Shown here in pieces: positions 2,745-31,351 of a stretch of 63,042 bases of DNA. Position 1 is the stretch's first letter, and each line of letters begins with the position of its first letter. A program made the position numbers and the translations under genes. The DNA comes from a virus, in IMG/VR virus record IMGVR_UViG_3300038701_001110, positions 1-63,042 of that record. One strand, written 5' to 3'. The notes under the pieces were generated by a model that saw nothing but the letters and a program-made list of their open reading frames with translations, made no database searches and was not told the origin of the DNA.

Positions 2745-2927
2745 ATGACTGACCTCAACTACGAAGCCTGCTTCGACCAGCTGCCGCGCCACCAGCGCGA
2801 GGTGCTGGACTATATCGTCCAGCCTGATGAACCCCTCACCCATGCCTCGATCATGGTAGGGGGCATGAACCCCAACAACGTCAAATCCAAGTACCGGGAG
2901 GAGCAGTATGCGACCTACGGCGCATGA
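2745..2927 (+). CDS. Hypothetical protein, 60 aa
   Basis: GAGGAGG RBS 8 nt before the ATG; packed tightly with its neighbours. Confidence 0.7.
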   Translation: MTDLNYEACFDQLPRHQREVLDYIVQPDEPLTHASIMVGGMNPNNVKSKYREEQYATYGA

Positions 2928-3129
2928 GCCCGAATGCACCGAGTGCGGAGAGAGCTACGACCAGCGCCGCGCGGCGCTGGGATACTCAACGTGCCTCGAC
3001 TGCGGGGACGCCGCCGCTGCAAGCGAACGGGCCTCGTGGTGTATCGCACCAGCCGGCCATAAGCAGGGTGAGACACTGGTGCGAGACCCAGCGCACCTAA
3101 AACAAATCAACAAGTATGCGGCGGGCTGA
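2908..3129 (+). CDS. Zinc-ribbon protein, 73 aa (CTEC...CLDC)
   Basis: GGAGGAG RBS, a 20-nt overlap with the previous gene, and two CxxC pairs. Confidence 0.7.
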   Translation: MRPTAHEPECTECGESYDQRRAALGYSTCLDCGDAAAASERASWCIAPAGHKQGETLVRDPAHLKQINKYAAG

Positions 3130-3136
3130 GCCCGCC

Positions 3137-3155
3137 GTTATACGGAGTGTATAAC
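3137..3155 (+). promoter_or_regulatory. Early-arm palindrome copy (7-bp arms, 5-nt centre)
   Basis: GTTATAC-GGAGT-GTATAAC; ends 1 nt before ATG 3157. Preceded by the hairpin GCGGGC-TGA-GCCCGC (3121-3135), which contains the upstream stop codon. Confidence 0.7.
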
Positions 3156-3156
3156 G

Positions 3157-3378
3157 ATGAAAAACTACGGCAACGGCTACGGCTACGGCAACGGCAACGG
3201 CTACGGCTACGGCGACGGCTACGGCGACGGCAACGGCACCGGCACCGGCTATGGCAACGGCTATGGCAACGGCTACGGCGACGGCAACGGCTACGGCTAC
3301 GGCTACGGCGACGGCTACGGCGACGGCACCGGCACCGGCAAAGGCGACGGCGACGGCTGCGGCCACGGCTACGAATAG
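3157..3378 (+). CDS. Gly/Tyr/Asn/Asp repeat protein 1, 73 aa (MKNYGNGYGYGNGNGYGYGDGYGDG...GHGYE)
   Basis: The ATG and the TAG bracket the repeat block exactly. No SD; the palindrome abuts the ATG. All six frames are open here, and the frame choice is argued in the findings. Confidence 0.55.
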   Translation: MKNYGNGYGYGNGNGYGYGDGYGDGNGTGTGYGNGYGNGYGDGNGYGYGYGDGYGDGTGTGKGDGDGCGHGYE

Positions 3379-3388
3379 GGACGGTATC

Positions 3389-3646
3389 ATGACACACAAC
3401 GGCAGAGGCGATGGCTACGGCGACGGCAGCGGCGACGGCTACGGTTACGGTTACGGTTACGGCAACGGTTACGGCAACGGTGACGGCAACGGTTACGGAA
3501 ACGGCTACGGCTACGGCAACGGCAGCGGCGAAGGCGATGGCTACGGCTATGGTAACGGCTACGGCATCGGCACCGGCACCGGCATCGGCAACGGCGACGG
3601 CGACGGCTACGGCTATGGTAACGGCTACGGCAACGGCGACGGATAA
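3389..3646 (+). CDS. Gly/Tyr/Asn/Asp repeat protein 2, 85 aa (MTHNGRGDGYGDGSGDGYGYGYGYGNG...GNGDG)
   Basis: The GY frame shifts by +1 relative to ORF 1 and is again bounded by an ATG and a TAA at the block edges. Gly codons vary GGC/GGT/GGA, which is synonymous only in this frame. Confidence 0.55.
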   Translation: MTHNGRGDGYGDGSGDGYGYGYGYGNGYGNGDGNGYGNGYGYGNGSGEGDGYGYGNGYGIGTGTGIGNGDGDGYGYGNGYGNGDG

Positions 3647-3679
3647 AAAACAACAAACACATCGAAAAGGAGAAACACG

Positions 3680-3985
3680 ATGTATGATAAGGGAACGAAA
3701 GTGATCATTCGAAGCTCAGAGTCTGGTGTCCATCATGGAACACTGACTGACTACAGCCTCGACGGTGGATGGGTTCGGCTTGAGAACTCCCGGCGCCTAT
3801 GGAGCTGGAAGACGGCCAACGACGGGATCAGCCTGAGCGAGATCGCGATTGCAGGGATCGACCAGAGCGAGAGCAAGATCACCGACACCCTGCCGGACAT
3901 CATTATCATAGGGGTGTGTGAGATCATCCCCACATTCGGGATGGCAGACGTCACCATCGAAGGTGCCCCCGTGGCGAAAGCATGA
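3680..3985 (+). CDS. Hypothetical protein, 101 aa
   Basis: AAGGAGA RBS 6 nt before the ATG. Confidence 0.8.
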   Translation: MYDKGTKVIIRSSESGVHHGTLTDYSLDGGWVRLENSRRLWSWKTANDGISLSEIAIAGIDQSESKITDTLPDIIIIGVCEIIPTFGMADVTIEGAPVAKA

Positions 3986-3990
3986 TCGCC

Positions 3991-4009
3991 GTTATACGAC
4001 GCGTATAAC
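3991..4009 (+). promoter_or_regulatory. Early-arm palindrome copy
   Basis: GTTATACG-ACG-CGTATAAC; ends 22 nt before ATG 4032, followed by CAAAGGAG. Confidence 0.7.
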
Positions 4010-5717: not shown

Positions 5718-6809
5718 ATGAACCAAGCACATACCATGTATCTCGTGAGCCTCGATCAAGCGACGAACCTGATCAAGGTGGGTGGTCACAAGCGCACCGT
5801 TCTGGTGCAGGGCCATACCGGCACAGGTAAGAGTTCTATCCTGCGCACCCTCGCTCAGGAGATGCCGACCCACACGGCGTGCTACTTCGACTGCACCACG
5901 AAGGACTTGGGCGACATCATGATCCCCAAGATGAAGGACCTCGACGGGCAGGACTACGTGCAGTTCGCCACCAACGAGGAGCTGGGTCTGCACCTGCGGG
6001 ACAAGCCGATCATCCTGATGATCGACGAATACGGCAAGGCCAACCCGATGGTGAAGAACGCCCTGCTGCGCCTCATGCTGGAGCGTCAGGTTGGCAGCTA
6101 CAAGCTGCACCCGGAGAGCATTGTGTTCGCTACCACCAACCTCGGCGCCGAGGGTGTCGGGGACATTCTGCCACCCCATGCACGCAACCGCATAACAGTG
6201 GTGCAGAGTCGCAAGCCGTCCCATACCGACTGGATCGAGTGGGGTATCAACAACGGTATCGACCACAGCCTGCTCGGCTGGGTGCGTGACAACCCGCAGC
6301 TGTTCCAGTCCTTCGAGGATGTGCAGTCGCCTGACGAGAACCCCTACATCTACCACCCACGCTCGCAGCGCGCTGCGTTCGTGACGCCTCGCTCCCTTGA
6401 GGCTGCGTCGGACTGGCTCAAGCTGCGTGACGGGCTCGACGACCAGACCGTGACCGCTGCCCTGATGGGTACTATCGGTGATCGTGCGGCGATGGACCTG
6501 ATGGCGTTTGTGCGACTGGCTGATGACCTGCCGACAATGAAGCAGATCAAGGAGGATCCCGAGAACGCACCGGTGCCGCAGTCGCCGGCCGCCGCCTGTA
6601 TGGTGGTGTTCCGCACACTGTCCAGCATCGAGATTGACTGGGTCGACGCGTGGGTGACCTACGTCAAGCGCATGAGCGACGAGGCTGTCGGCGTGTTCAT
6701 CAACGGCGTACGCACCCCGAAATACAGCAGGGCTGGTGTGGTCATGACCAACAATAGCTTCACCGATCTCGTGCGTGACCGGTCCTACCTGTTCACCGCA
6801 GACCAGTGA
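5718..6809 (+). CDS. AAA+ ATPase, MoxR/CobS-like, 363 aa
   Basis: Walker A GHTGTGKS, Walker B ILMIDEYG, and an arginine-containing segment (PHARNR) after sensor 1. Adjacent to a VWA partner. Confidence 0.8.
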   Translation: MNQAHTMYLVSLDQATNLIKVGGHKRTVLVQGHTGTGKSSILRTLAQEMPTHTACYFDCTTKDLGDIMIPKMKDLDGQDYVQFATNEELGLHLRDKPIILMIDEYGKANPMVKNALLRLMLERQVGSYKLHPESIVFATTNLGAEGVGDILPPHARNRITVVQSRKPSHTDWIEWGINNGIDHSLLGWVRDNPQLFQSFEDVQSPDENPYIYHPRSQRAAFVTPRSLEAASDWLKLRDGLDDQTVTAALMGTIGDRAAMDLMAFVRLADDLPTMKQIKEDPENAPVPQSPAAACMVVFRTLSSIEIDWVDAWVTYVKRMSDEAVGVFINGVRTPKYSRAGVVMTNNSFTDLVRDRSYLFTADQ

Positions 6810-6826
6810 GACAATCAGCGAGGCGC

Positions 6827-6845
6827 GTTATGCGCCTCGCATAAC
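6827..6845 (+). promoter_or_regulatory. Early-arm palindrome copy (G:C covariant stem)
   Basis: GTTATGCG-CCT-CGCATAAC; ends 17 nt before ATG 6863. Overlaps a perfect 9-bp competing hairpin, GCGAGGCGC-GTTAT-GCGCCTCGC (6818-6840). Confidence 0.7.
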
Positions 6846-6862
6846 CATGGGAGAAGTAACCA

Positions 6863-8095
6863 ATGATCAAGACAACCAACATCAGCGCAGAACAGCGGCT
6901 GGAGAAAGCCGTGCTGGCTATCATGCACAGGCCAGAGTATATCGCCCTGTCCGGCGTGATGATGATCGGCAAGCGCACCGTGACAGACTCGCCGAAAGTG
7001 CCGACAGCCTGCACGAACGGGCGTGACGAGGCGTATGGGCGGCAGTTCGTCGGCACGCTGACCGACGCCGAGCTGCGCTTCCTCGTGCTGCACGAGGTCT
7101 ACCACAAGCTCTACAAACACCTGACCACATGGCGCTGGATGTATGACCGGAACGCCAAGGTTGCCAACATGGCCTGCGACTACGTGATCAACATCCAGCT
7201 GTCCGACGCTCACCGTGACGGGTGGGCCAAGATGCCCGACGGTGGACTGCTCGACCCGAAGTATCGGGGATGGGATAGCGCCAAGGTGTTCCACGACCTG
7301 ATGAAGGACGCGCAGCAGCGGCCGCAGGGCGGCAGCGGCGGTCAGGGTGGACAGGGTGACGGTCAGCCTCAGCCGGGTGAACAGGGCGGTGGCTTCGACG
7401 AGCACGACTGGGACGGTGCCAAGGAGATGCCCACCGAGGAGAAGGAAGCGCTGGCCCGGGACATTGACGAGGCCCTGCGTCAAGGCGCGCTGGTGGCTGG
7501 CAAGCTGGGCACGGGTGGTGACCGCACGTTCGAGGACCTGCTCCAGCCCAAGATCGACTGGCGCGAGGTGCTGCGGGAGTTCATCCAGAACACCTGTGCC
7601 GGGTCTGACTACTCAACGTGGCAGAAGCCTAGCCGCCGGTATATCGGCGCCGGGTACTATATGCCGTCCGGCATATCCGAAAGAATAGGCGAGATCGTCG
7701 CTGCACCTGACATGTCCGGCTCCATCGGTGATGTTGAGATCCGCGCCATGCTGGGAGAGATCAAGGGCATCGCTGATATCGTCCACCCCGAGGCTATCCG
7801 GTTGCTCTACTGGGACACCGAGGTGACGCAGGACGAGCGGTATGAGACGCACGAGCTCGACACCATGATGCAGACAACCAAGCCCAAGGGTGGCGGCGGG
7901 ACGGCCCCTGACTGCGTGCCACGCTACATGACCGAGAACAACATCGAGGCTCAGTGCGCTGTCGTGCTGACCGACGGCTACGTCGGCAACTGGGGGAACT
8001 GGTCATGCCCTGTGCTCTGGGTCGTCGTCGACAACCCCCGCGCCAACCCGCCGTTCGGCAAGGTTGTGCACATCGAAGCAAGTGATCTGAGATAA
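6863..8095 (+). CDS. VWA-domain protein with N-terminal HExxH metallopeptidase-like domain, 410 aa
   Basis: LHEVYH motif near residue 75, MIDAS-like DMSGS in the C-terminal half, VLTDGY, and a Gly/Gln-rich linker. Classic partner of MoxR-type ATPases. Confidence 0.75.
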   Translation: MIKTTNISAEQRLEKAVLAIMHRPEYIALSGVMMIGKRTVTDSPKVPTACTNGRDEAYGRQFVGTLTDAELRFLVLHEVYHKLYKHLTTWRWMYDRNAKVANMACDYVINIQLSDAHRDGWAKMPDGGLLDPKYRGWDSAKVFHDLMKDAQQRPQGGSGGQGGQGDGQPQPGEQGGGFDEHDWDGAKEMPTEEKEALARDIDEALRQGALVAGKLGTGGDRTFEDLLQPKIDWREVLREFIQNTCAGSDYSTWQKPSRRYIGAGYYMPSGISERIGEIVAAPDMSGSIGDVEIRAMLGEIKGIADIVHPEAIRLLYWDTEVTQDERYETHELDTMMQTTKPKGGGGTAPDCVPRYMTENNIEAQCAVVLTDGYVGNWGNWSCPVLWVVVDNPRANPPFGKVVHIEASDLR

Positions 8096-8104
8096 ACGAA
8101 GGAG

Positions 8105-8695
8105 ATGGAAATGAGACTTACCAACGGCATTCGCGACGCCATCCTGTATAAAGCCATGACCGGTGTCCCAGCGATAGACTATATCGCCAAGCTGGTCCCT
8201 GTGATCCAAGGTGTGATCTACAAGCATATGCCCGATAAGGTTAAGGCGGTATATGACGATGAGGACTCCAGAAAATATCTCCACAGCACGAGATGTGTCA
8301 TCAAGGATGGGAACAAGTGGTATTGGGTCGAACCGCTTCTCCGCGGATTGGACAATGCCAACAATCTTGAAATCCAAATCAACCCAGACGCGGTCAGTAT
8401 TATGAAAAAGGGCACGCTCCGGTTTGATCTGTCGAAGGCTGTGATAGCCACAGGCTATGTTGAAAAGCACATCGAGCAGGTTGAGCTACGCAAGGATGTC
8501 GAGCGCAGGCTCAGGAACACTCTTCGTTCTGTGACCACAACGAAACGCCTGCGTGAGGTTTTGGAACCAGAGCTGCATCACCTGATCCCGGTCGAGAGTG
8601 CAAGTGGGGCCAACCTTCCGGCACTGGCAGCCCCCGTCGTTTCCGATTTGCGCAAGCTCGGGGCCCAGCTACCCGATGTTCCGAAGGCGAAGTGA
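8105..8695 (+). CDS. Hypothetical protein, 196 aa (alternative start 8111)
   Basis: GGAG abuts ATG 8105, so the in-frame ATG 8111 has better spacing. Lower GC than its neighbours. Confidence 0.75.
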   Translation: MEMRLTNGIRDAILYKAMTGVPAIDYIAKLVPVIQGVIYKHMPDKVKAVYDDEDSRKYLHSTRCVIKDGNKWYWVEPLLRGLDNANNLEIQINPDAVSIMKKGTLRFDLSKAVIATGYVEKHIEQVELRKDVERRLRNTLRSVTTTKRLREVLEPELHHLIPVESASGANLPALAAPVVSDLRKLGAQLPDVPKAK

Positions 8696-8705
8696 GCGTC
8701 TCACT

Positions 8706-8727
8706 GTATAGCCCCACGGGGCTATAC
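8706..8727 (+). other. Strong hairpin after the stop codon (GTATAGCCCC/GGGGCTATAC)
   Basis: 10-nt perfect inverted repeat with no U-tract. Similar in its AGCCCCAC..GGGGCT core to the hairpin at 2532-2547. Confidence 0.6.
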
Positions 8728-8749
8728 TATCGGGTGCTCACCCGGCGCC

Positions 8750-8768
8750 GTTATACGCGGCGTATAAC
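8750..8768 (+). promoter_or_regulatory. Early-arm palindrome copy
   Basis: GTTATACG-CGG-CGTATAAC; ends 14 nt before ATG 8783. Confidence 0.7.
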
Positions 8769-8782
8769 CAAAGGAGACTAAC

Positions 8783-9676
8783 ATGAACTTTGAATCCACC
8801 CCCACCGTGTCCGCGCCTTCCATCTCTTCCTCGGCCATGCTGGTCGATCTCGGCATCTCTGTCTGGACCGGTCGCAAGAAGGACAAGCGCGCGTCGGCCG
8901 AGGTCGCCGACACCAACCATGCCAATCGTGGCGTGGCGTCCGTGAACAAGGCCCTGCTCGGTGACTGTGCTGAGCTGACCGCCATCAGCAAGTTCGCATC
9001 TATGGTGCGCCAGTCGCACTACGCTTCGACCATGCCGTGGTCCGACACCGGCCTGCGCCTGCTGCCCACGCAGCGCTACTTCGCCTATGTTGAGCAGATG
9101 AGCGGCTTCCAGCAGGAGTTCAACCGGCTGGTCGAGGCGTTCCTGTCCAACTACGAGTGGGAGGTGCTGCAGGCTCACGCCAAGCTCGGTGATCTGTTCA
9201 ACGCTGACGAGTATCCCACCGTCGACTCCCTGCGCGACAAGTTCGGGTTCCGTCTCAACTACATCCCCCTGCCCGACAGCGGCGACTGGCGCGTGGACAT
9301 GGAGGCTGAGGCTCAGCAGGCTCTGCGTGAGCAATATGATGGCTTCTACCGCAAGCAGATGGAGACAGCCATGGACGACGTGATCCAGCGTGTCACCGGC
9401 GAGCTGCAGCGCTTCGTCAAGCAGCTGGACGTGGATGAGGATGGTCGCCGCGGCAAGATCTACCAGTCGACCCTCGACAACGTGCGCAACCTGACCAAGC
9501 TTCTGGAGGAGTGCAACTTCACCAACGACCCGACCATCTCGCTCGCACTCGCCAAGCTGCGCCAGACCCTGCGCGGTCTCGACCCGACAGCCCTCAAGAA
9601 GAACGAGGCGTTCCGTGACGAGACCAAGCGTGACCTGCAGGCTGCCATCGCAGCGCTGCCTTCGCTCGACATGTGA
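8783..9676 (+). CDS. Hypothetical protein, 297 aa; possibly DUF3150-like
   Basis: AAGGAGA RBS. The N-terminal pattern LVDLGISVWTGRKKDKRA resembles, from memory, proteins that accompany CobS/CobT-like ATPase-VWA pairs on plasmids. Not verified. Confidence 0.7.
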   Translation: MNFESTPTVSAPSISSSAMLVDLGISVWTGRKKDKRASAEVADTNHANRGVASVNKALLGDCAELTAISKFASMVRQSHYASTMPWSDTGLRLLPTQRYFAYVEQMSGFQQEFNRLVEAFLSNYEWEVLQAHAKLGDLFNADEYPTVDSLRDKFGFRLNYIPLPDSGDWRVDMEAEAQQALREQYDGFYRKQMETAMDDVIQRVTGELQRFVKQLDVDEDGRRGKIYQSTLDNVRNLTKLLEECNFTNDPTISLALAKLRQTLRGLDPTALKKNEAFRDETKRDLQAAIAALPSLDM

Positions 9677-25552: not shown

Positions 25553-25585
25553 AGCCCCCGAGTTCGCTCGGGGGCTTTTCCTTTA
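25553..25585 (+). terminator. Terminator at the convergence point of the two arms
   Basis: AGCCCCCGAG-TTCG-CTCGGGGGCT followed by TTTCCTTT. The U-tract exists only in the + direction. It abuts the stop of the 1922-aa minus-strand gene. Confidence 0.75.
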
Positions 25586-28500
25586 CGGGACTCCCCACTC
25601 GCCAAGCACCTGTCGAATGTAGCGCTCGTTTGTGGCGCTGAAGAGAACACCGTGGTGCATACGCTGCGTGGTGCGTTCGTGCGAAGACAGGGAGTTGGAG
25701 ATCGTCTCCGGCCCGATAAAGGCGTCACGGTTCCCCCGCTGCAGCTGCTCTCTGTTGAACTGCCTGATGTCTCGCAGGGTCTCCCGGAACCCGGCCCTGT
25801 CACCTTGCCGCCGCGCCGTGTAGAGCTCGCGAAGAAGACGGACGCGCCTTGCGGAGATGGCTTGGTCGATGCGACGGCCGACGTTGTTCTGCTCGAGCTG
25901 CAGCAGGTAGTCGGACGGCATGAAGCCGAACGCTTGGGCAATGGCGCTGTATGGAGTCACGTCGCCGACAATTGGATCCCCGCGCAGCGTGTTGATACCG
26001 TCCGTATAGTAACGGACGCCCCGGAAAATGTTGCCGAATGAAGTGGGCAGTGCGGCCTCAATGGCACGCTCGTAGTCACCCTCTGCGATCAGGCTCGGGA
26101 CGCGGTCGGTAGCCTTAAGAAGCAGACCCAGCACGGGACCACCGAGCGCCTCCACCTGCTGGAACAACCACGGGGCGTCTCGGTTGAAGGATTCCCGATA
26201 GAAAGAGCCGGACAGACCGATGCGGCTGGCAACGTCCACGCCGAACGCGTAGTTCAGGATGCCGTTGTATCCGAGCTCACCGATCCCGGTGCGCACTAGG
26301 GTCTCGAAGTCCTCTTCGTCGTCCGCAGCGAACAGGTTGTACATCGCAGCCATAGTTGCGAACAGCGGCACCCCTTGGGCCCCGCTGAACAGGGCGAAGC
26401 TCCCCATGATACTCGCGAACTGCATACGTGCGATGCGGATGTCAGACATCTTCGCCTCGTAGTCCGGGTCGGACTTGGGAGGAGCTTGGAAGATCTTCGA
26501 GCGCCGCAGCGTCTGAGCCAGCATGTTGAACATGGCCAACGGGTGCCGCTTGTAGAGGTAGATCAGGCGCGTGAAGCCATGTTGGGCGAGCAGCGGAGCC
26601 CCGGTCGACGTCACCGACCCGTTGGTGAGTTCCGAGATATACGTCGCCTCTCTGGCCGCGGATTGCAGCTGCTCCTCGTTGAGTCGGTTCACATCGTTGT
26701 GGCCCGCCTCTTTCGCAATCTTCTGAGCTTCCAGCTGGAACGCGGAAATGGCCGTCACTTGCCGAGCCATGTTTTCCGTCAGGTGCTGGAATATACCAGA
26801 CTTGGCAAACAGGGTTTGCATCGCCCCGATGGCACCCTTGGCGTCGAGCAGTTCGTTCGTGTACGACTGCTGGAACATGTTCTGCTGACGCATCTCCTCC
26901 TGCAGATACCGCATGTAACGGATGTTCGCGTTCTTCGGATCGCCGAAGTCGTAGTTCTCGAGGGAGTAGTCGAACACCTCTCCCCGCTCCTGACCTTCAA
27001 CAAGTTTCCCACTCTCGTCGAACATCGGCACGTTGCGGGTTTTCCCACTGCCGAAGAGGACGCGGTGAGCGTTCCCCATGGAGCGCACCACCTTGCCCAT
27101 CCCGCCGTACTGGGAAGCGAGGTAGGGTGCCGCCACAATCGGCAGGTTGGCCAGAGACAGGATCGCCGACGAGATGTTGAGGCCCAGCGTCATTGCGTAT
27201 GTCATGCCGGTGGCACCGGTGGAGAGCGGACCGTAGCGCCGCTTGGCGGCGTCGATGTATTCGTCGAGCAGGTTCTTATACATACGCACGATGCTGGAAT
27301 CACGCGACGCCTCCTGCCACCCCTTCGACAGGTTCCGGTTCGTATAAGTGTCTGTGTACTCTTGCGATTGTCGCTTGAGCTGTTCCTCTTGAACGGAGTA
27401 CTCCATGGCCGCGAGGCTACGAGCACTGTCGTAACCCTTGGTTTGAAGCATGTGGATGGTGTCTTTTCTGGTCAGCCCTGCCGTTCCCGGGGCGATGTCC
27501 CCGAGGAAACCCCGGACGCCGGTGTACATACCATCTTCGCGAGCTTTCTTGCGAGCGCGGTAGGCTTGAACAAACGAGCGCTCCGGGGACGCATCAAAGA
27601 TGAGGTCTGTCAGTTTCTGCTCAAGTTCCGGGGTCATTTGACCAGAAGACTTGACCGTTACAAGAACGTCTGCGGCGAACTGCAGGGGGACCTTTTGTGC
27701 CCCCCTCGAGGACCGAGAATTGTAGCTGTCGAACTGCGATATTTGCACACCGTCTTCGTCACGGATACGCTCGAGTTCAGTTATACGAGCCTGACGATCA
27801 GACTCCGACGCGAAGGATTCCTTGTAGCGTTCCACTTCCCCGAGAAAGGGGTCTTTCGCTGTGTAGGCGATCCAGTACGACCCGTTACGTTGCAAGGGTT
27901 GATAGCCGTCAGTGATCTGGCCGGCGAGGATTTTCTCGTGGATCCTGTCAAATACCGAACGGCGGACAGTGGCGTCCTGTTCCGACAACAGCGCGTCGAT
28001 ACGCGCCTTGAGTGCCTTGCTGGTGGCAATGTGCATATCTTCAAACATGCCGAGTGCGCGAGCGTAGGCGGCTTTACCGTCGGCCCCGAGGCTTTCATAC
28101 ATGGGCTTCAGTCGACGGTACATGTCTACCGTGAACTGATCTGGTGCTGGTTCCCGGCGAGCCTTTGAGGCGGTGTTCCCACGGCGACGTTCATGGAGCT
28201 CCATGGCTACTGTGCGGTCAGACTCGGTGTCGAACGCTTTCCGCACGCGACGCTTTATGGTCCCGTCGGCGTTTAGCTCGTCGTAGTAGAATCGCCACTT
28301 GGAGTAGTAGGATTCCGGCTTGCGCAGGTCGATCTGAAACAGCGTTCCGAGTAGACGTACGTCATTGAACGTGTTCAGCTTATCAGGGGCACCTTTCAAG
28401 AACGCCGAGATCTGGTTCACCGTCCGGCGGACCAAGCCAAGAAGTTCCTTCTCTCTGTTCTGTCTCCCTTTGATCACGCTGTCGTAGGCATCCACCATCT

Positions 28501-31351
28501 CCGGGGGGAGATAGTCCTTGGCGAGATCCATGAGGTTCCGCATCGGCACGGCCGTGCGCAGCAGATACTCCTTGCTGCGGTCAGGGATAACCCTGCTCGC
28601 GATGGCGTCTCGAATTTTGCCGATGTCCGCCTGCGTCGGTGCCCGCACCTTCCCCTTCATCGAACTTAGCGCCTGCCGGGCACGGTTCGGTGCAAAAGAC
28701 GTGTCGTATAGATTCCCAGTGCCCCGGCTCTGAACGTCCGGTGATAGCAGCGCTTGGAAGATCTCGTCGGCTGCGTCAAGAGCTCTCGTGTTGTCCCGAG
28801 TCTGCAGGCCGACCATGGCCCGCATTTTGTTCATCATCGCACGCTGGAAGCTGCGCAGGGCGGTGACCTCGGAGCCGTCGATGTTTATCTGCGCGAGCTG
28901 CACGCGGAACTCTTGGTTTGTCAGCGCCTCAGCGACGAACTCCTCCGGGTTCTGCATGGCGTACTGGCTGATCGGTGTGTCCCCGAGCTTCTCCATGAGC
29001 GCAACCACGCGTCGCGTGAGCGGGTCTGACGGGTTCCGTAGGATCTTCGACGTGGCCGCGTGCACCATCTCGTGCATCAGCGTGCCGACAGTCATACCAG
29101 TTTCCGCGTTCAGATAGATGCGGTTGTTGGTGAACGCACCGGGGCGGACCTGCCCGTTGGGGTCAGTGAGCGGGGCCATGTTGTCTACGGTTGGGTCAAG
29201 CACTTCCACCGTAACCCCTTCCGTGAAAGGAGCGAGGGCTTTAGCGAGACGAGCGATCTGACGAACCGACCCCTTACCCTTGCGAGCGGCAATGGTATCG
29301 AGGGCGCCTCGAAGATTACCAGCAAGCACCTGAGACCGAATGTCCCCCGGGGCGGTGTTGTCGATACCAGACTCCCGCACGGGTGCGGGCTTGGCGACGT
29401 CGGGTTCTGGCGTGACGGTGATCTCGGCGGCGTCGATGGCTGCCTGAAGCTTGGCTTGCGCCACCACCTCGTCGATAGACGCGGCGTTCGTAAACGGGTT
29501 GTCGCTCCGTTGGAACACCGGCTCGATGGCATCCCACTGAGCTTTAGATAGGTTGCCTAGCCAATCGGCGTAGTTTGCCACCCCTTCCAGATTTGGGTTG
29601 TCTCGCATCTCCGCGGTGCGTTTTGGACTATACGCTCGCTGGAACGTCTGGCGAGGAGTGCTTGGACCCCCGCCGTCCCTGATAATCTGGTCGGCAACGT
29701 CTTCTTCCGGCGCAGCTTGGGCTTCCGGCGCAGCTTGGGCTTCCGGCGCAGCTTGGGCTTCCGGCGCAGCTTGGGCCTCCGGCGCAGCTTGGTCTTCCGG
29801 CGCAGTTTGGGCTTCCGGCGCAGCTTGGGCTTCCGGCGCAGCTTGGGCTTCCGGCGCAGCTTGGGCTTCCGGCGCAGCGGGGGTTTCCGGCGCAGCTTGG
29901 GCAACAGGCTGGAGCAACGATCCCAAAGCCTGACGAAGTTCCGGTCGCTTGGTTCTTGAAGCGAGGCTTCGCGCTGCCTCTATGACGGCATCGGGGGTCG
30001 CCGTTCCGGACGACGCCAACCTGTACAAAGCGGTACTCCTCGGGAGGATGCGGCTCGGGATAGCATCCAGCGCTTCAAGGCTGATCGGCGCTGGAGCCCG
30101 GACCTGCTCCTGTGGAGCGGCTGGCTCTGCATTTTCGGTCGCTCGCGCCCCCGGCACGCTTGACGTGGGTTGTCCACGGACGGGGCCCGGGACTTGAATC
30201 ACTGGCGGCGTTTGTGCCTGTGCAGCGGTACGCTGCGTAACCGTTTCCGGCGAAGGCAGGGCGCGCGGGGGAGCGGGCAAAGCTTGTCGAGTTCTGGCAA
30301 GCTCGGCCTCAGAGGGTGCAGGCAGGGCGGCAGGGCGCACAGGAGCGGGTATGCCAACGCGCCCAGCGGCCGTCTCCTCTCGGCTTGGGGCGGGAAGGGC
30401 CAACGGCTCAGGCGCGACCTCGTCCTCCTGTTGTGCCGGACGGGAGACAGCACCACCAACGCCACCGAGACCGCCACCGAGCACAGCTGCGCCGACAGCG
30501 GCATCCATGTATTCCTGCAGCGCCTCGTCGTCGTCCAGCGGCAACCCCGCTTGCCAACGCTCAATGACCTGCTGTCCAACCTCTGTCGGGACTTCCACGG
30601 CCGCACCGCGACCGGCACCGGCAACCGTGCGAGTGAAGATGTTACGCCCTGCGGGGGCAACAAACCCTAGCGCTCTAAGCGGGAGTAGCAGTTTGTTCAT
30701 AACGGAGTCTAAGGCGCCCTGAGCCATTGCCCCGAGAAGAACTTCGGCGTCGCTGCGGTCCCCACCTTCCTCGTCGCGACGGGCAACGCCAGTGCCGTAG
30801 AATAACGGAGTGACAGTGGCAGCGCCACCAGCAAGCGCGCCGGCTAGCCCACCTGCGGGGCCCCCAACGGCGGTACCAGCAAGCCCACCAGCAAGAGACC
30901 CAGCGAGGCTCGCCGCCATCTCCGGTCCGGATTGTCCAGCCATCTCACCTGCGTAGGTCAGAAAGTCTCCGACACCTTCCACGTCGCGCCAGTTTGTCGG
31001 CGCTGGCATGTGGGCGGCTTCGGCGATCTGCTCTTCTCGAGCGCCCCCGACCATCCCGGCCCCAAGGTTTTCGAGCCAGTCTGCACCGATGTTCTGCCCG
31101 AGGTTCTCAGCAGCGCTACCGAGTGCGCTGTAGGATGACGTCAAGCCGCGATCCCAGCCGCGACCGAACGCCGTCCCGTCGTCCCAAGGAGTTTCCCCGC
31201 GGCTTTCCTCCCAAGCTTGTTGGAATTCAGCCTCCCGCTGCATGAGCATTGCTTGGGCTCGCGCAGCCTCACTGGCCGTTGGGGTATCTCCGTCTATCTC
31301 TACAGTATAGGTGCGACCGCTAAAGCCACCCTGAACCTGAATAGTGCCCAT
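25583..31351 (-). CDS. Very large virion (probably internal/ejected) protein with an HExxH motif and a PEAQAA repeat tract, 1922 aa
   Basis: Last gene of the late operon. HEMVH is encoded at 29060-29074. It has an N-terminal Gly/Ala-rich segment and a Pro/Ala-rich low-complexity region. Confidence 0.8.
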   Translation of the reverse strand: MGTIQVQGGFSGRTYTVEIDGDTPTASEAARAQAMLMQREAEFQQAWEESRGETPWDDGTAFGRGWDRGLTSSYSALGSAAENLGQNIGADWLENLGAGMVGGAREEQIAEAAHMPAPTNWRDVEGVGDFLTYAGEMAGQSGPEMAASLAGSLAGGLAGTAVGGPAGGLAGALAGGAATVTPLFYGTGVARRDEEGGDRSDAEVLLGAMAQGALDSVMNKLLLPLRALGFVAPAGRNIFTRTVAGAGRGAAVEVPTEVGQQVIERWQAGLPLDDDEALQEYMDAAVGAAVLGGGLGGVGGAVSRPAQQEDEVAPEPLALPAPSREETAAGRVGIPAPVRPAALPAPSEAELARTRQALPAPPRALPSPETVTQRTAAQAQTPPVIQVPGPVRGQPTSSVPGARATENAEPAAPQEQVRAPAPISLEALDAIPSRILPRSTALYRLASSGTATPDAVIEAARSLASRTKRPELRQALGSLLQPVAQAAPETPAAPEAQAAPEAQAAPEAQAAPEAQTAPEDQAAPEAQAAPEAQAAPEAQAAPEAQAAPEEDVADQIIRDGGGPSTPRQTFQRAYSPKRTAEMRDNPNLEGVANYADWLGNLSKAQWDAIEPVFQRSDNPFTNAASIDEVVAQAKLQAAIDAAEITVTPEPDVAKPAPVRESGIDNTAPGDIRSQVLAGNLRGALDTIAARKGKGSVRQIARLAKALAPFTEGVTVEVLDPTVDNMAPLTDPNGQVRPGAFTNNRIYLNAETGMTVGTLMHEMVHAATSKILRNPSDPLTRRVVALMEKLGDTPISQYAMQNPEEFVAEALTNQEFRVQLAQINIDGSEVTALRSFQRAMMNKMRAMVGLQTRDNTRALDAADEIFQALLSPDVQSRGTGNLYDTSFAPNRARQALSSMKGKVRAPTQADIGKIRDAIASRVIPDRSKEYLLRTAVPMRNLMDLAKDYLPPEMVDAYDSVIKGRQNREKELLGLVRRTVNQISAFLKGAPDKLNTFNDVRLLGTLFQIDLRKPESYYSKWRFYYDELNADGTIKRRVRKAFDTESDRTVAMELHERRRGNTASKARREPAPDQFTVDMYRRLKPMYESLGADGKAAYARALGMFEDMHIATSKALKARIDALLSEQDATVRRSVFDRIHEKILAGQITDGYQPLQRNGSYWIAYTAKDPFLGEVERYKESFASESDRQARITELERIRDEDGVQISQFDSYNSRSSRGAQKVPLQFAADVLVTVKSSGQMTPELEQKLTDLIFDASPERSFVQAYRARKKAREDGMYTGVRGFLGDIAPGTAGLTRKDTIHMLQTKGYDSARSLAAMEYSVQEEQLKRQSQEYTDTYTNRNLSKGWQEASRDSSIVRMYKNLLDEYIDAAKRRYGPLSTGATGMTYAMTLGLNISSAILSLANLPIVAAPYLASQYGGMGKVVRSMGNAHRVLFGSGKTRNVPMFDESGKLVEGQERGEVFDYSLENYDFGDPKNANIRYMRYLQEEMRQQNMFQQSYTNELLDAKGAIGAMQTLFAKSGIFQHLTENMARQVTAISAFQLEAQKIAKEAGHNDVNRLNEEQLQSAAREATYISELTNGSVTSTGAPLLAQHGFTRLIYLYKRHPLAMFNMLAQTLRRSKIFQAPPKSDPDYEAKMSDIRIARMQFASIMGSFALFSGAQGVPLFATMAAMYNLFAADDEEDFETLVRTGIGELGYNGILNYAFGVDVASRIGLSGSFYRESFNRDAPWLFQQVEALGGPVLGLLLKATDRVPSLIAEGDYERAIEAALPTSFGNIFRGVRYYTDGINTLRGDPIVGDVTPYSAIAQAFGFMPSDYLLQLEQNNVGRRIDQAISARRVRLLRELYTARRQGDRAGFRETLRDIRQFNREQLQRGNRDAFIGPETISNSLSSHERTTQRMHHGVLFSATNERYIRQVLGEWGVP
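29705..29902 (-). repeat. 11 tandem 18-bp units (TTCCGGCGCAGCTTGGGC) encoding (AAPEAQ)n
   Basis: Read directly. A few units carry 1-3 substitutions. In frame within the 1922-aa ORF. Confidence 0.9.

Follow-up and report, generated by a model that had tools for sequence, protein, structure and literature searches.

The DNA analysed here is a 63,042-nt stretch of viral sequence (IMG/VR record IMGVR_UViG_3300038701_001110; hereafter, the window). It contains two tandem open reading frames (ORFs), GY1 and GY2, whose predicted products consist almost entirely of glycine alternating with tyrosine, asparagine or aspartate, and which are followed by a gene of the DUF6948 family (Table 1). Codon statistics and comparison with relatives indicate that GY1 and GY2 are almost certainly real protein-coding early phage genes. 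Together with their DUF6948 neighbor, they represent a two-gene DUF6948 plus (Gly-X)n phage cassette that is very widespread and, as it appears, undescribed.

Glycine alternates strictly in both proteins, in runs of 34 (GY1) and 40 (GY2) Gly-X units in which X is mostly Tyr, Asn or Asp. GY1 is composed of 47% Gly, 19% Tyr, 11% Asn and 10% Asp and has a net charge of −6; the corresponding values for GY2 are 48%, 18%, 12% and 9%, with a net charge of −8. At the DNA level, Tandem Repeats Finder reports a single period-6 array of 80 copies spanning positions 3165 to 3642, and six-frame translation of the whole 63 kb yielded no (G-X)n run of n ≥ 6 apart from GY1 and GY2 (0 in 50 shuffles). An earlier note on this DNA had singled out these two near-pure Gly/Tyr/Asn/Asp ORFs, and the coordinates, lengths and composition it gave held up in translation, repeat finding and shuffling. 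Its remark that they contain essentially no hydrophobic or basic residues is roughly true here, with two Lys and one His in GY1 and one Arg, one His and two Ile in GY2, but does not extend to relatives, whose GY ORFs carry many Arg, Lys and His. The proteins begin with MKNYGNG and MTHNGRG, respectively, and neither has a hydrophobic segment anywhere along its length.

No curated family covers the two ORFs, just as the earlier note had supposed: searches of Pfam, PHROGs, NCBIfam and PADLOC gave only sub-threshold low-complexity matches (TrAA12, ser_rich), a protein look-up found no record of the exact GY1 protein, and megablast of the region against GenBank phages returned no match. The sole Pfam match, TrAA12-like (PF22807), scored 25.4 and 25.6 bits, short of the gathering threshold of 30.9, was confined to profile positions 384 to 433, which form a Gly-rich linker, and was discarded. 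Several other identities were considered and rejected. RTX or β-roll Ca2+-binding repeats (GGxGxDxUx) are incompatible with a period of two residues (6 nt) that lacks a hydrophobic position, and a silk fibroin heavy chain-like protein with ORFs of 73 and 85 amino acids (aa) that contain no Ala, no GAGAGS or GAGAGY blocks and only 2/85 Ser in GY2. The secreted Gly/Tyr-rich antimicrobial peptides (nematode NLP/CNC, shepherin, acanthoscurrin) were dismissed for want of an N-terminal signal peptide in GY1 and GY2, which likewise leaves the earlier idea of a secreted peptide unsupported. A pediocin-type YGNGV bacteriocin was rejected as well, as was a DNA mimic, given that the acidity of the GY proteins is not kept in relatives.

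The palindrome-GY1-GY2-DUF6948 unit is delimited by two copies of a 19-nt palindrome, and the first ATG does lie 1 nt past such a copy, as had been noticed before. The motif GTTATAC-N5-GTATAAC occurs nine times in the window versus zero expected. Most copies form an 8-bp stem with a 3-nt loop (GTTATACG-NNN-CGTATAAC); seven of them lie 13 to 22 nt before an ATG, six with a (C)AAGGAG-type Shine-Dalgarno (SD) sequence. The copy at 3137 is 100% conserved in the close relative L124, while L128-L130 and L213 carry a doubly changed palindrome, GTTATGC...GCATAAC, a compensatory change indicating that the dyad symmetry is maintained. Within the unit, there is no internal palindrome, the genes are separated by gaps of 10 and 33 nt, and a strong SD sequence precedes the DUF6948 gene.

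Upstream, a GC-rich hairpin encloses the stop codon of a zinc-ribbon-like ORF (2908-3129), and a centroid RNA fold shows this hairpin together with the neighboring palindrome hairpin. Hairpins of a similar kind, also rich in GC, stand ahead of further palindromes, such as those at 2576 and 8750. A scan for sigma-70 promoters and terminators gave no signal at the palindromes, and Pfam scans of ten other ORFs revealed no RNA polymerase to pair with them. In phage N4, hairpin promoters place the +1 position about 11 nt from the loop center. If the palindrome at 3137 had an N4-like geometry, transcription would start on the A of the ATG at 3157 and the GY1 mRNA would be leaderless.

Table 1. Features of the cassette region and of its surroundings (window coordinates)
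Feature	Position	Strand	Remarks
GC-rich hairpin	3119-3137	+	CGGCGGGC-TGA-GCCCGCCG; perfect 8-bp; encloses upstream-ORF stop and abuts palindrome
Palindrome, upstream cassette boundary	3137-3155	+	GTTATAC-GGAGT-GTATAAC; loop GGAG ~9 nt before ATG 3157
GY1	3157-3378	+	ATG start; 73 aa; (Gly-X)n, MKNYG(N/Y/D-G)n...GHGYE
GY2	3389-3646	+	ATG start; 85 aa; (Gly-X)n; 10 nt past GY1 stop, +1 frame relative to GY1
SD sequence AAGGAG	3667-3672	+	7 nt before DUF6948 ATG; read from sequence
DUF6948 (PF22253) gene	3680-3985	+	101 aa; Pfam E 4.3e-21; starts 33 nt past GY2 stop
Palindrome, downstream unit boundary	3991-4009	+	Next copy
All palindrome copies	1661, 2316, 2576, 3137, 3991, 5681, 8750, 11733, 19184		19 nt each
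MoxR-like AAA ATPase	5718-6809		
DUF2201 metallopeptidase-like + VWA protein	6863-8095		
DUF3150	8783-9676		

The coding frame of the repeat and its turnover

A repeat with a period of 6 nt raises the question of which frame, if any, is translated. Using as a reference 18 long ORFs of the window, most of them with family matches, we compared all six frames and found the codon log-odds to be highest in the GY frame of both blocks (0.42, versus ≤0.085 in the other frames). The GY frame also scored best of six for synonymous codon choice in both blocks, and its GC content at third codon positions was 0.93 in GY1 and 0.80 in GY2, compared to 0.71 for the reference set. Contrary to what had been thought, only some of the six frames are open: many stops interrupt the minus frame reading CCG-TAG in both blocks, and a TGA lies in frame +2 of block 2. 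Regarding the codons of block 2, Gly does vary as previously described (31 GGC, 8 GGT and 2 GGA; all 34 in GY1 are GGC), whereas the Tyr and Asp codons are not wholly fixed, with two TAT and two GAT.

Other phages carrying such genes provided further support for the GY frame. Among the complete unique GY ORFs of loci selected by their DUF6948 gene, a start codon was present in 85/85, and an SD-like motif stood upstream of 67%, as opposed to 13% at random positions. Every Tyr codon, of which there are ~30 per locus, is one step away from a stop, yet none had turned into one, whereas other frames do gain stops. One and the same peptide pattern is written with different codon sets at different loci; for instance, L169 uses GGT for 28/28 Gly together with TAC, and L167 uses GGC with TAT and GAT only, which argues for selection on the peptide. 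Within a locus, by contrast, codons are near-uniform (in an unbiased sample, median 97% GGC and 100% NAC, versus 45% and 59% in neighbor genes), suggesting that each tract expanded from a few 6-nt units.

These observations leave little room for the repeat as a non-coding hexanucleotide element (spacer, structural element or recombination hotspot) whose GY ORFs are artefacts of periodicity. The period-6 array with its 80 copies, the several other open frames and indels in multiples of 6 nt, which keep every frame, would all be compatible with such an element; for the last reason, in-frame indels do not discriminate in favor of coding either. However, the ATG and stop at the block edges are conserved in relatives despite scrambled interiors, Tyr codons are spared from becoming stops, every run detected is co-oriented with DUF6948 and SD motifs are enriched upstream. 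Moreover, the peptide pattern is kept across codon sets, GY repeats are fused in frame to protein domains, and the region matched no Rfam family. We thus consider a non-coding repeat very improbable.

We regard it as extremely unlikely that another frame is the real gene, be it the Arg-rich one (RLRQRLR..., GTG 3147-3392) or an Ala/Thr/Val-rich one on either strand. ORFs of 81 to 131 aa are present in these frames, and some database proteins end in an out-of-frame translation of the repeat. Yet the codon log-odds there range from 0.08 to −0.9, as opposed to 0.42, the Arg-rich frame has a stop within block 2, Prodigal-type calls choose the GY frame in all relatives, and the domain fusions always use it. 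The database proteins with out-of-frame ends include P0217, a DUF6948 protein of 164 aa whose last 40 residues read PPLRLRPPPPPLRLRP... and are an out-of-frame translation of the GY repeat, probably through a frameshift or assembly error fusing both genes.

The earlier note had proposed frame-breaking changes in relatives as a test of the GY frame. This test came out for coding: in close and distant relatives alike, GY ORFs running from ATG to stop occupy the same positions. Close DUF6948 homologues reside on 60- to 64-kb metagenomic contigs, among which L124, with 93% protein identity in DUF6948, has two GY ORFs at the same positions as in the window. Its GY1 orthologue also starts with MKNYG and measures 59 aa instead of 73 aa, and the GY2 orthologues start with MIHTG and are 89 aa (L124/L125) or 81 aa (L127) long, this difference occurring between phages with identical DUF6948 proteins. 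In more distant relatives (L128-L130, L132-L140), one to at least four GY ORFs per locus surround the DUF6948 gene.

Between L124 and the window, flanking genes and intergenic DNA are 93 to 100% identical, compared to ~75% for the GY ORFs. At the non-Gly positions, identity was 0.50 and 0.33, as against 0.42 ± 0.05 and 0.34 ± 0.05 after shuffling the order of X; being at the shuffle level, these values indicate that the X order is essentially scrambled, while ATG, stop and alternating Gly are kept. The tract turns over fast, with 6-nt units being gained, lost and reshuffled, which accounts both for the codon uniformity within loci and for the scrambled X order between near-identical phages. 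What selection keeps is a start codon, an open frame and a Gly-X/Tyr-rich peptide pattern.

A diversity-generating retroelement was also considered as a source of the variation. The window contains no third, template-like G-X tract besides GY1 and GY2, and variant codons include AAA, GAA and AGA, which are not NNC. No reverse transcriptase was found among the window ORFs scanned, a scan that covered part of them.

The hypervariability could alternatively mark the GY proteins as independent effectors in an arms race, acting as defense decoys or mimics or as toxic or antimicrobial peptides, with the DUF6948 protein as their chaperone, antidote or regulator. That they vary in copy number and diverge to an extreme degree between near-identical phages would suit such a role, as would their place in the early region beside small accessory genes, the acidity of the window copies and the existence of eukaryotic Gly/Tyr-rich antimicrobial peptides. 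But an X order no better conserved than random implies that no specific surface is maintained, and the lack of conserved net acidity among relatives, in which Arg, Lys and His are common, also weakens the earlier idea of an acidic decoy or mimic. In addition, the proteins have neither a signal peptide nor an amphipathic segment, and PADLOC gave no match for either GY ORF or for DUF6948. We therefore judge an effector role to be unlikely.

A DUF6948 partner and the cassette across phages

The gene downstream of GY2 belongs to DUF6948, a family of 2,159 clusters at 50% identity. Searching 185,579 species genomes returned two matches only, one of them on a contig of a Sulfitobacter metagenome-assembled genome (MAG), again with GY ORFs; judging from this scarcity, the family is essentially viral. 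Its protein is predicted to adopt an Sm/LSm-like fold, that is, a strongly bent five-stranded β-barrel. An AlphaFold (AF2) model built with 39 homologues reached a predicted local distance difference test (pLDDT) score of 94 and a predicted template-modelling (TM) score of 0.87, and all 50 of the 50 matches listed by Foldseek in the PDB were Sm/LSm proteins (archaeal SmAP, spliceosomal Sm, LSm1-8 and LSm14; E ~3e-3). A DUF6948 profile found nothing significant among PDB sequences. In BFVD, the best matches of the model were DUF6948 proteins and gp018 of Rheinheimera phage Barba (TM-score 0.6), and one JGI record independently labels a homologue 'snRNP-like protein'. The tandem-duplicated DUF6948 proteins P0072 and P0098 only hint at self-association.

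We defined the cassette as a (Gly-X)n ORF of ~40 to 140 aa with n ≥ 10, Tyr in X and its own start, an adjacent same-strand gene of the DUF6948 superfamily, and a hypervariable tract. All of this is found in the window, where the GY runs start with ATG, DUF6948 adjoins them and the repeats vary relative to their flanks. What had seemed an unfamiliar oddity is a member of a wider class: the exact 21-mer GGCTACGGCAACGGCTACGGC occurs in >120 IMG/VR contigs among the matches listed, its GGC frame giving GY ORFs of several subtypes. Nor had the earlier note linked such ORFs to DUF6948/Sm-like genes, of which they are near-obligate neighbors. In loci selected by this 21-mer (L002-L121), each DUF6948 match lies on the same strand as a GY ORF, adjacent to or overlapping it in all but L028, where they are 422 nt apart. 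In Ralstonia phage NK-7 and Pectobacterium phage Koroua, the gene right after DUF6948, with the same orientation, encodes a G-[Y/S/D] repeat. Pattern searches in IMG/VR with the flanking 258-aa protein or a single DUF6948 protein, on the other hand, found no relatives.

For a test in the reverse direction, we chose 80 IMG/VR loci by DUF6948 similarity alone and searched them for Tyr-containing (G-X)n runs with n ≥ 10. Such a run was present in 74/80 loci, always on the DUF6948 strand, and in a gene adjoining DUF6948 in 72/80, with the reservation that the IMG/VR contigs behind these linkage counts lack phylogenetic independence. The exceptions comprise L139 and L199, whose degenerate Gly-X ORFs, beside the gene and on its strand, fell below the filter, and two loci that stop right after the gene; one lineage has its GY ORFs ~2 kb from DUF6948. 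After three profile rounds, a DUF6948-superfamily gene was seen upstream of 59 GY ORFs, out of 73 whose upstream neighbor could be scored, and downstream of 9.

The superfamily falls into three clades, a division for which profile iteration was combined with a single hhalign comparison and a single structural match. Clade A, with the motif SRRLWxW, is DUF6948 proper; clade B (DRGWIFAGDV...WESIGF) and clade C (LQRGW...WGTTKGLGE), the latter including Barba gp018, have no Pfam family. By hhalign, clade A aligned to clades B and C combined with a probability of 88% (E 3e-6, 79 columns). The GY proteins differ accordingly: a basic C-terminal tail was found in 17/21 clade B pairs as opposed to 0/34 pairs of clades A and C, the terminal motif RPVG in clade B only, and a KRTINFEE-like motif in clade C, save for one unclassified partner. 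Since these terminal motifs co-vary with the partner clade, the pair has diversified together. With regard to gene order, the GY gene is upstream of the Sm-like gene in the clade of the window and downstream in most other clades.

Elsewhere, GY repeats also serve as a module or linker joined in frame to globular phage domains, namely, to DUF7666 (PF24703; N-terminal), to a small N-terminal domain ('DVLDAGACIDGV') and to an uncharacterised C-terminal domain of ~150 aa (VDGVPTII...FAHGETLKEA...LTGSC). The fusion loci are L015, L026, L063 and L073; L092, L094, L105, L045, L099 and L118; and L006, L013, L016, L040, L065 and L108. At ten loci of the C-domain or 'DVLDAGACIDGV' types (L092, L094, L105, L045; L006, L013, L016, L040, L065, L108), the fusion gene follows a DUF6948-like gene in 9/10, all but L040.

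Gene order and fusions also bear on a possible role of the repeat in translation or at the mRNA level, with GY1 and GY2 as upstream ORFs that set DUF6948 expression or as elements that titrate or sense tRNA-Gly(GCC) and G34/queuosine tRNAs. The uniform codons described above would fit this idea, as X is almost always encoded by NAY (Tyr, Asn, Asp, His), and in the clade of the window DUF6948 immediately follows the GY ORFs, without an intervening palindrome. However, GY genes mostly lie downstream of the Sm-like gene in other clades, and some loci use only NAT or only GGT, which fits duplication of units better than selection on one tRNA. Ser, which is not encoded by NAY, is the commonest X overall (27%), and the fusions to globular domains further argue against a purely translational role, which we deem quite improbable. 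As a side observation, the amino acids decoded by G34/queuosine tRNAs are precisely the dominant X residues Tyr, Asn and Asp plus His, a rarer one, and their codons are nearly always NAC; no tRNA genes were found in the window.

With respect to expression, RNA-seq of Rheinheimera phage Barba places gp017 (GY) and gp018 (Sm-like) in the first temporal cluster with maxima at t1-t2 (PMC9305737, Table S2), and the gene numbering used there matches the GenBank record. Taken together, we hold with high confidence that the GY ORFs are real genes within a conserved two-gene cassette, that they are expressed early, and that their hypervariable repeat, changing through turnover of its units, is under selection for composition and period. 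GenBank names of GY homologues (PP919442, MW202613), that is, 'fibroin heavy chain-like' (NK-7), 'lamprin' and also 'adsorption protein', reflect composition only and are misleading. A literature search for DUF6948, DUF7666, GY repeats or phage Sm-like/glycine-rich proteins found no phage paper.

Possible joint function of the repeat and Sm-like proteins

Our best overall explanation is that the cassette consists of real genes whose repeat products are sticker-spacer polymers working with an Sm-like oligomer, to which we assign a probability of roughly 0.55. According to this model, the GY proteins and the Sm-like protein would act together early in infection. The GY polypeptides would be multivalent polymers of Tyr stickers and Gly spacers that self-associate into a condensate, gel or cross-β assembly, while the Sm-like protein, which carries the invariant Arg/Trp-rich motif SRRLWxW and probably oligomerizes into a ring, might nucleate or cap this assembly or link it to RNA. 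It is well established that Tyr/Arg stickers and Gly spacers drive the assembly of FUS-family low-complexity domains. Moreover, amyloid-like fibrils arise from the synthetic peptides GYGYGYG and NYNYNYN (PMC8163036). The FUS-type composition, the fibrils of designed peptides and the Arg/Trp motif of the Sm-like partner are what point to self-association, and condensate formation by the GY proteins is plausible by analogy. The mechanism itself, that is, self-associating GY polymers with an Sm-like partner, we nonetheless put forward tentatively. Its fullest version seems doubtful: a phage-induced condensate, gel or amyloid-like scaffold of Sm-like rings and (Gly-Tyr/Asn/Asp)n chains, possibly an RNA granule, with a tract tunable by slippage.

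Several points weigh against the joint-assembly model. GY2 is predicted to be disordered (pLDDT of 32 and no secondary structure from a single sequence), but AlphaFold run on one low-complexity sequence is blind to amyloid or condensate behavior. The Sm-like call comes from a predicted structure with modest target-normalised TM-scores (0.45 to 0.67), and the DUF6948 protein matched PF22253 but not LSM in Pfam. Nine DUF6948 proteins, taken from the longest of the 150 best family representatives, included no Sm-GY fusion, so that gene linkage and co-diversification alone speak for a physical interaction; both would also follow from shared ancestry. Likewise, a scrambled X order is equally expected if composition is all that is constrained. 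The Barba data concern transcription only, in a distant relative. Finally, short-read assemblies break in repeats, and tract lengths and sequences, including those of the window, may hold errors. Two Logan assemblies of close relatives show where such breaks fall, L001 beginning ~95 nt ahead of DUF6948 and L126 within a GY ORF. Because of such breaks, genes of this type are probably under-represented, and often truncated or mis-called, in metagenomic catalogues.

The combination of a small Sm-fold protein with a Gly-based low-complexity repeat has counterparts in cellular RNA biology: SmD1 and SmD3 carry (Gly-Arg)n tails, LSm4 has RGG repeats, and Hfq of Acinetobacter and Moraxella has a Gly-rich C-terminal extension. 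The likeness to these proteins, which for the fold is a Foldseek match, goes only so far. The phages encode the repeat as a protein of its own, frequently in multiple copies, with Tyr, Asn, Asp or Ser as X rather than Arg or Phe/Gln, and its partner, a putative RNA-binding ring, lacks a Pfam LSM match. With prion-like or FUS-type domains and the fibril-forming (X-Tyr)n peptides, the GY proteins share a G/Y/N/S-rich composition, Gly-spaced Tyr and a near-absence of hydrophobic residues; they differ in being proteins of 36 to 137 aa with a strict two-residue period and frequent Asp, encoded by stand-alone genes of bacterial viruses. Silk fibroin heavy chain and lamprin show alternating Gly-X including Tyr, a compositional likeness only, given that the phage proteins are shorter than 140 aa, lack GAGAGS blocks and a secretion signal, and are encoded among early genes.

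The closest counterparts are the GY proteins of other phages, namely, XCO36015 of NK-7, XDF89605 of Koroua, Barba gp017 and those in IMG/VR, which have the same repeat type, size, early or accessory location and DUF6948-type neighbor. Compared to these, the window is distinguished by having its Sm-like gene preceded by a tandem pair of copies, where in most others a single copy follows it, by an X of Tyr, Asn or Asp rather than the Tyr, Ser or Asp common in many, and by the absence of the terminal motifs of clades B and C (RPVG...RRR, KRTINFEE).

With 2,159 DUF6948 clusters, and GY genes almost always alongside in the loci sampled, the cassette is a common yet ignored building block of phage early regions. 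If the pair does assemble, it would be among the simplest natural sticker-spacer systems and would represent a pairing of low-complexity and Sm-fold proteins in bacterial viruses. Cultured carriers, that is, the phages of Pectobacterium, Ralstonia and Rheinheimera, make the cassette directly testable.

Neighboring genes and the phage of the window

Downstream of the cassette, the window encodes a cluster of MoxR, DUF2201-VWA and DUF3150 genes (5718-9676; Table 1), which relatives L124-L130 likewise carry beside the cassette. In unrelated loci (L027, L039, L054), too, GY genes adjoin ORFs of DUF3150-like and AAA-like type. Further away, a 1,922-aa ORF on the minus strand (25583-31351) has no Pfam match, while its C-terminal 400 residues match PHROG 10089, 'DarB-like antirestriction' (E 5.6e-32).

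The phage is distant from all cultured ones. For its large terminase, the best matches are to phage 023Pt_psg01 (47%) and to the Pelagibacter phages HTVC027P and HTVC023P (43 to 44%). The stronger of the two DUF6948 matches in bacterial genomes lies on a 42-kb contig binned with the Sulfitobacter MAG; together with the window's GC content of 59%, this hints at a roseobacter host.

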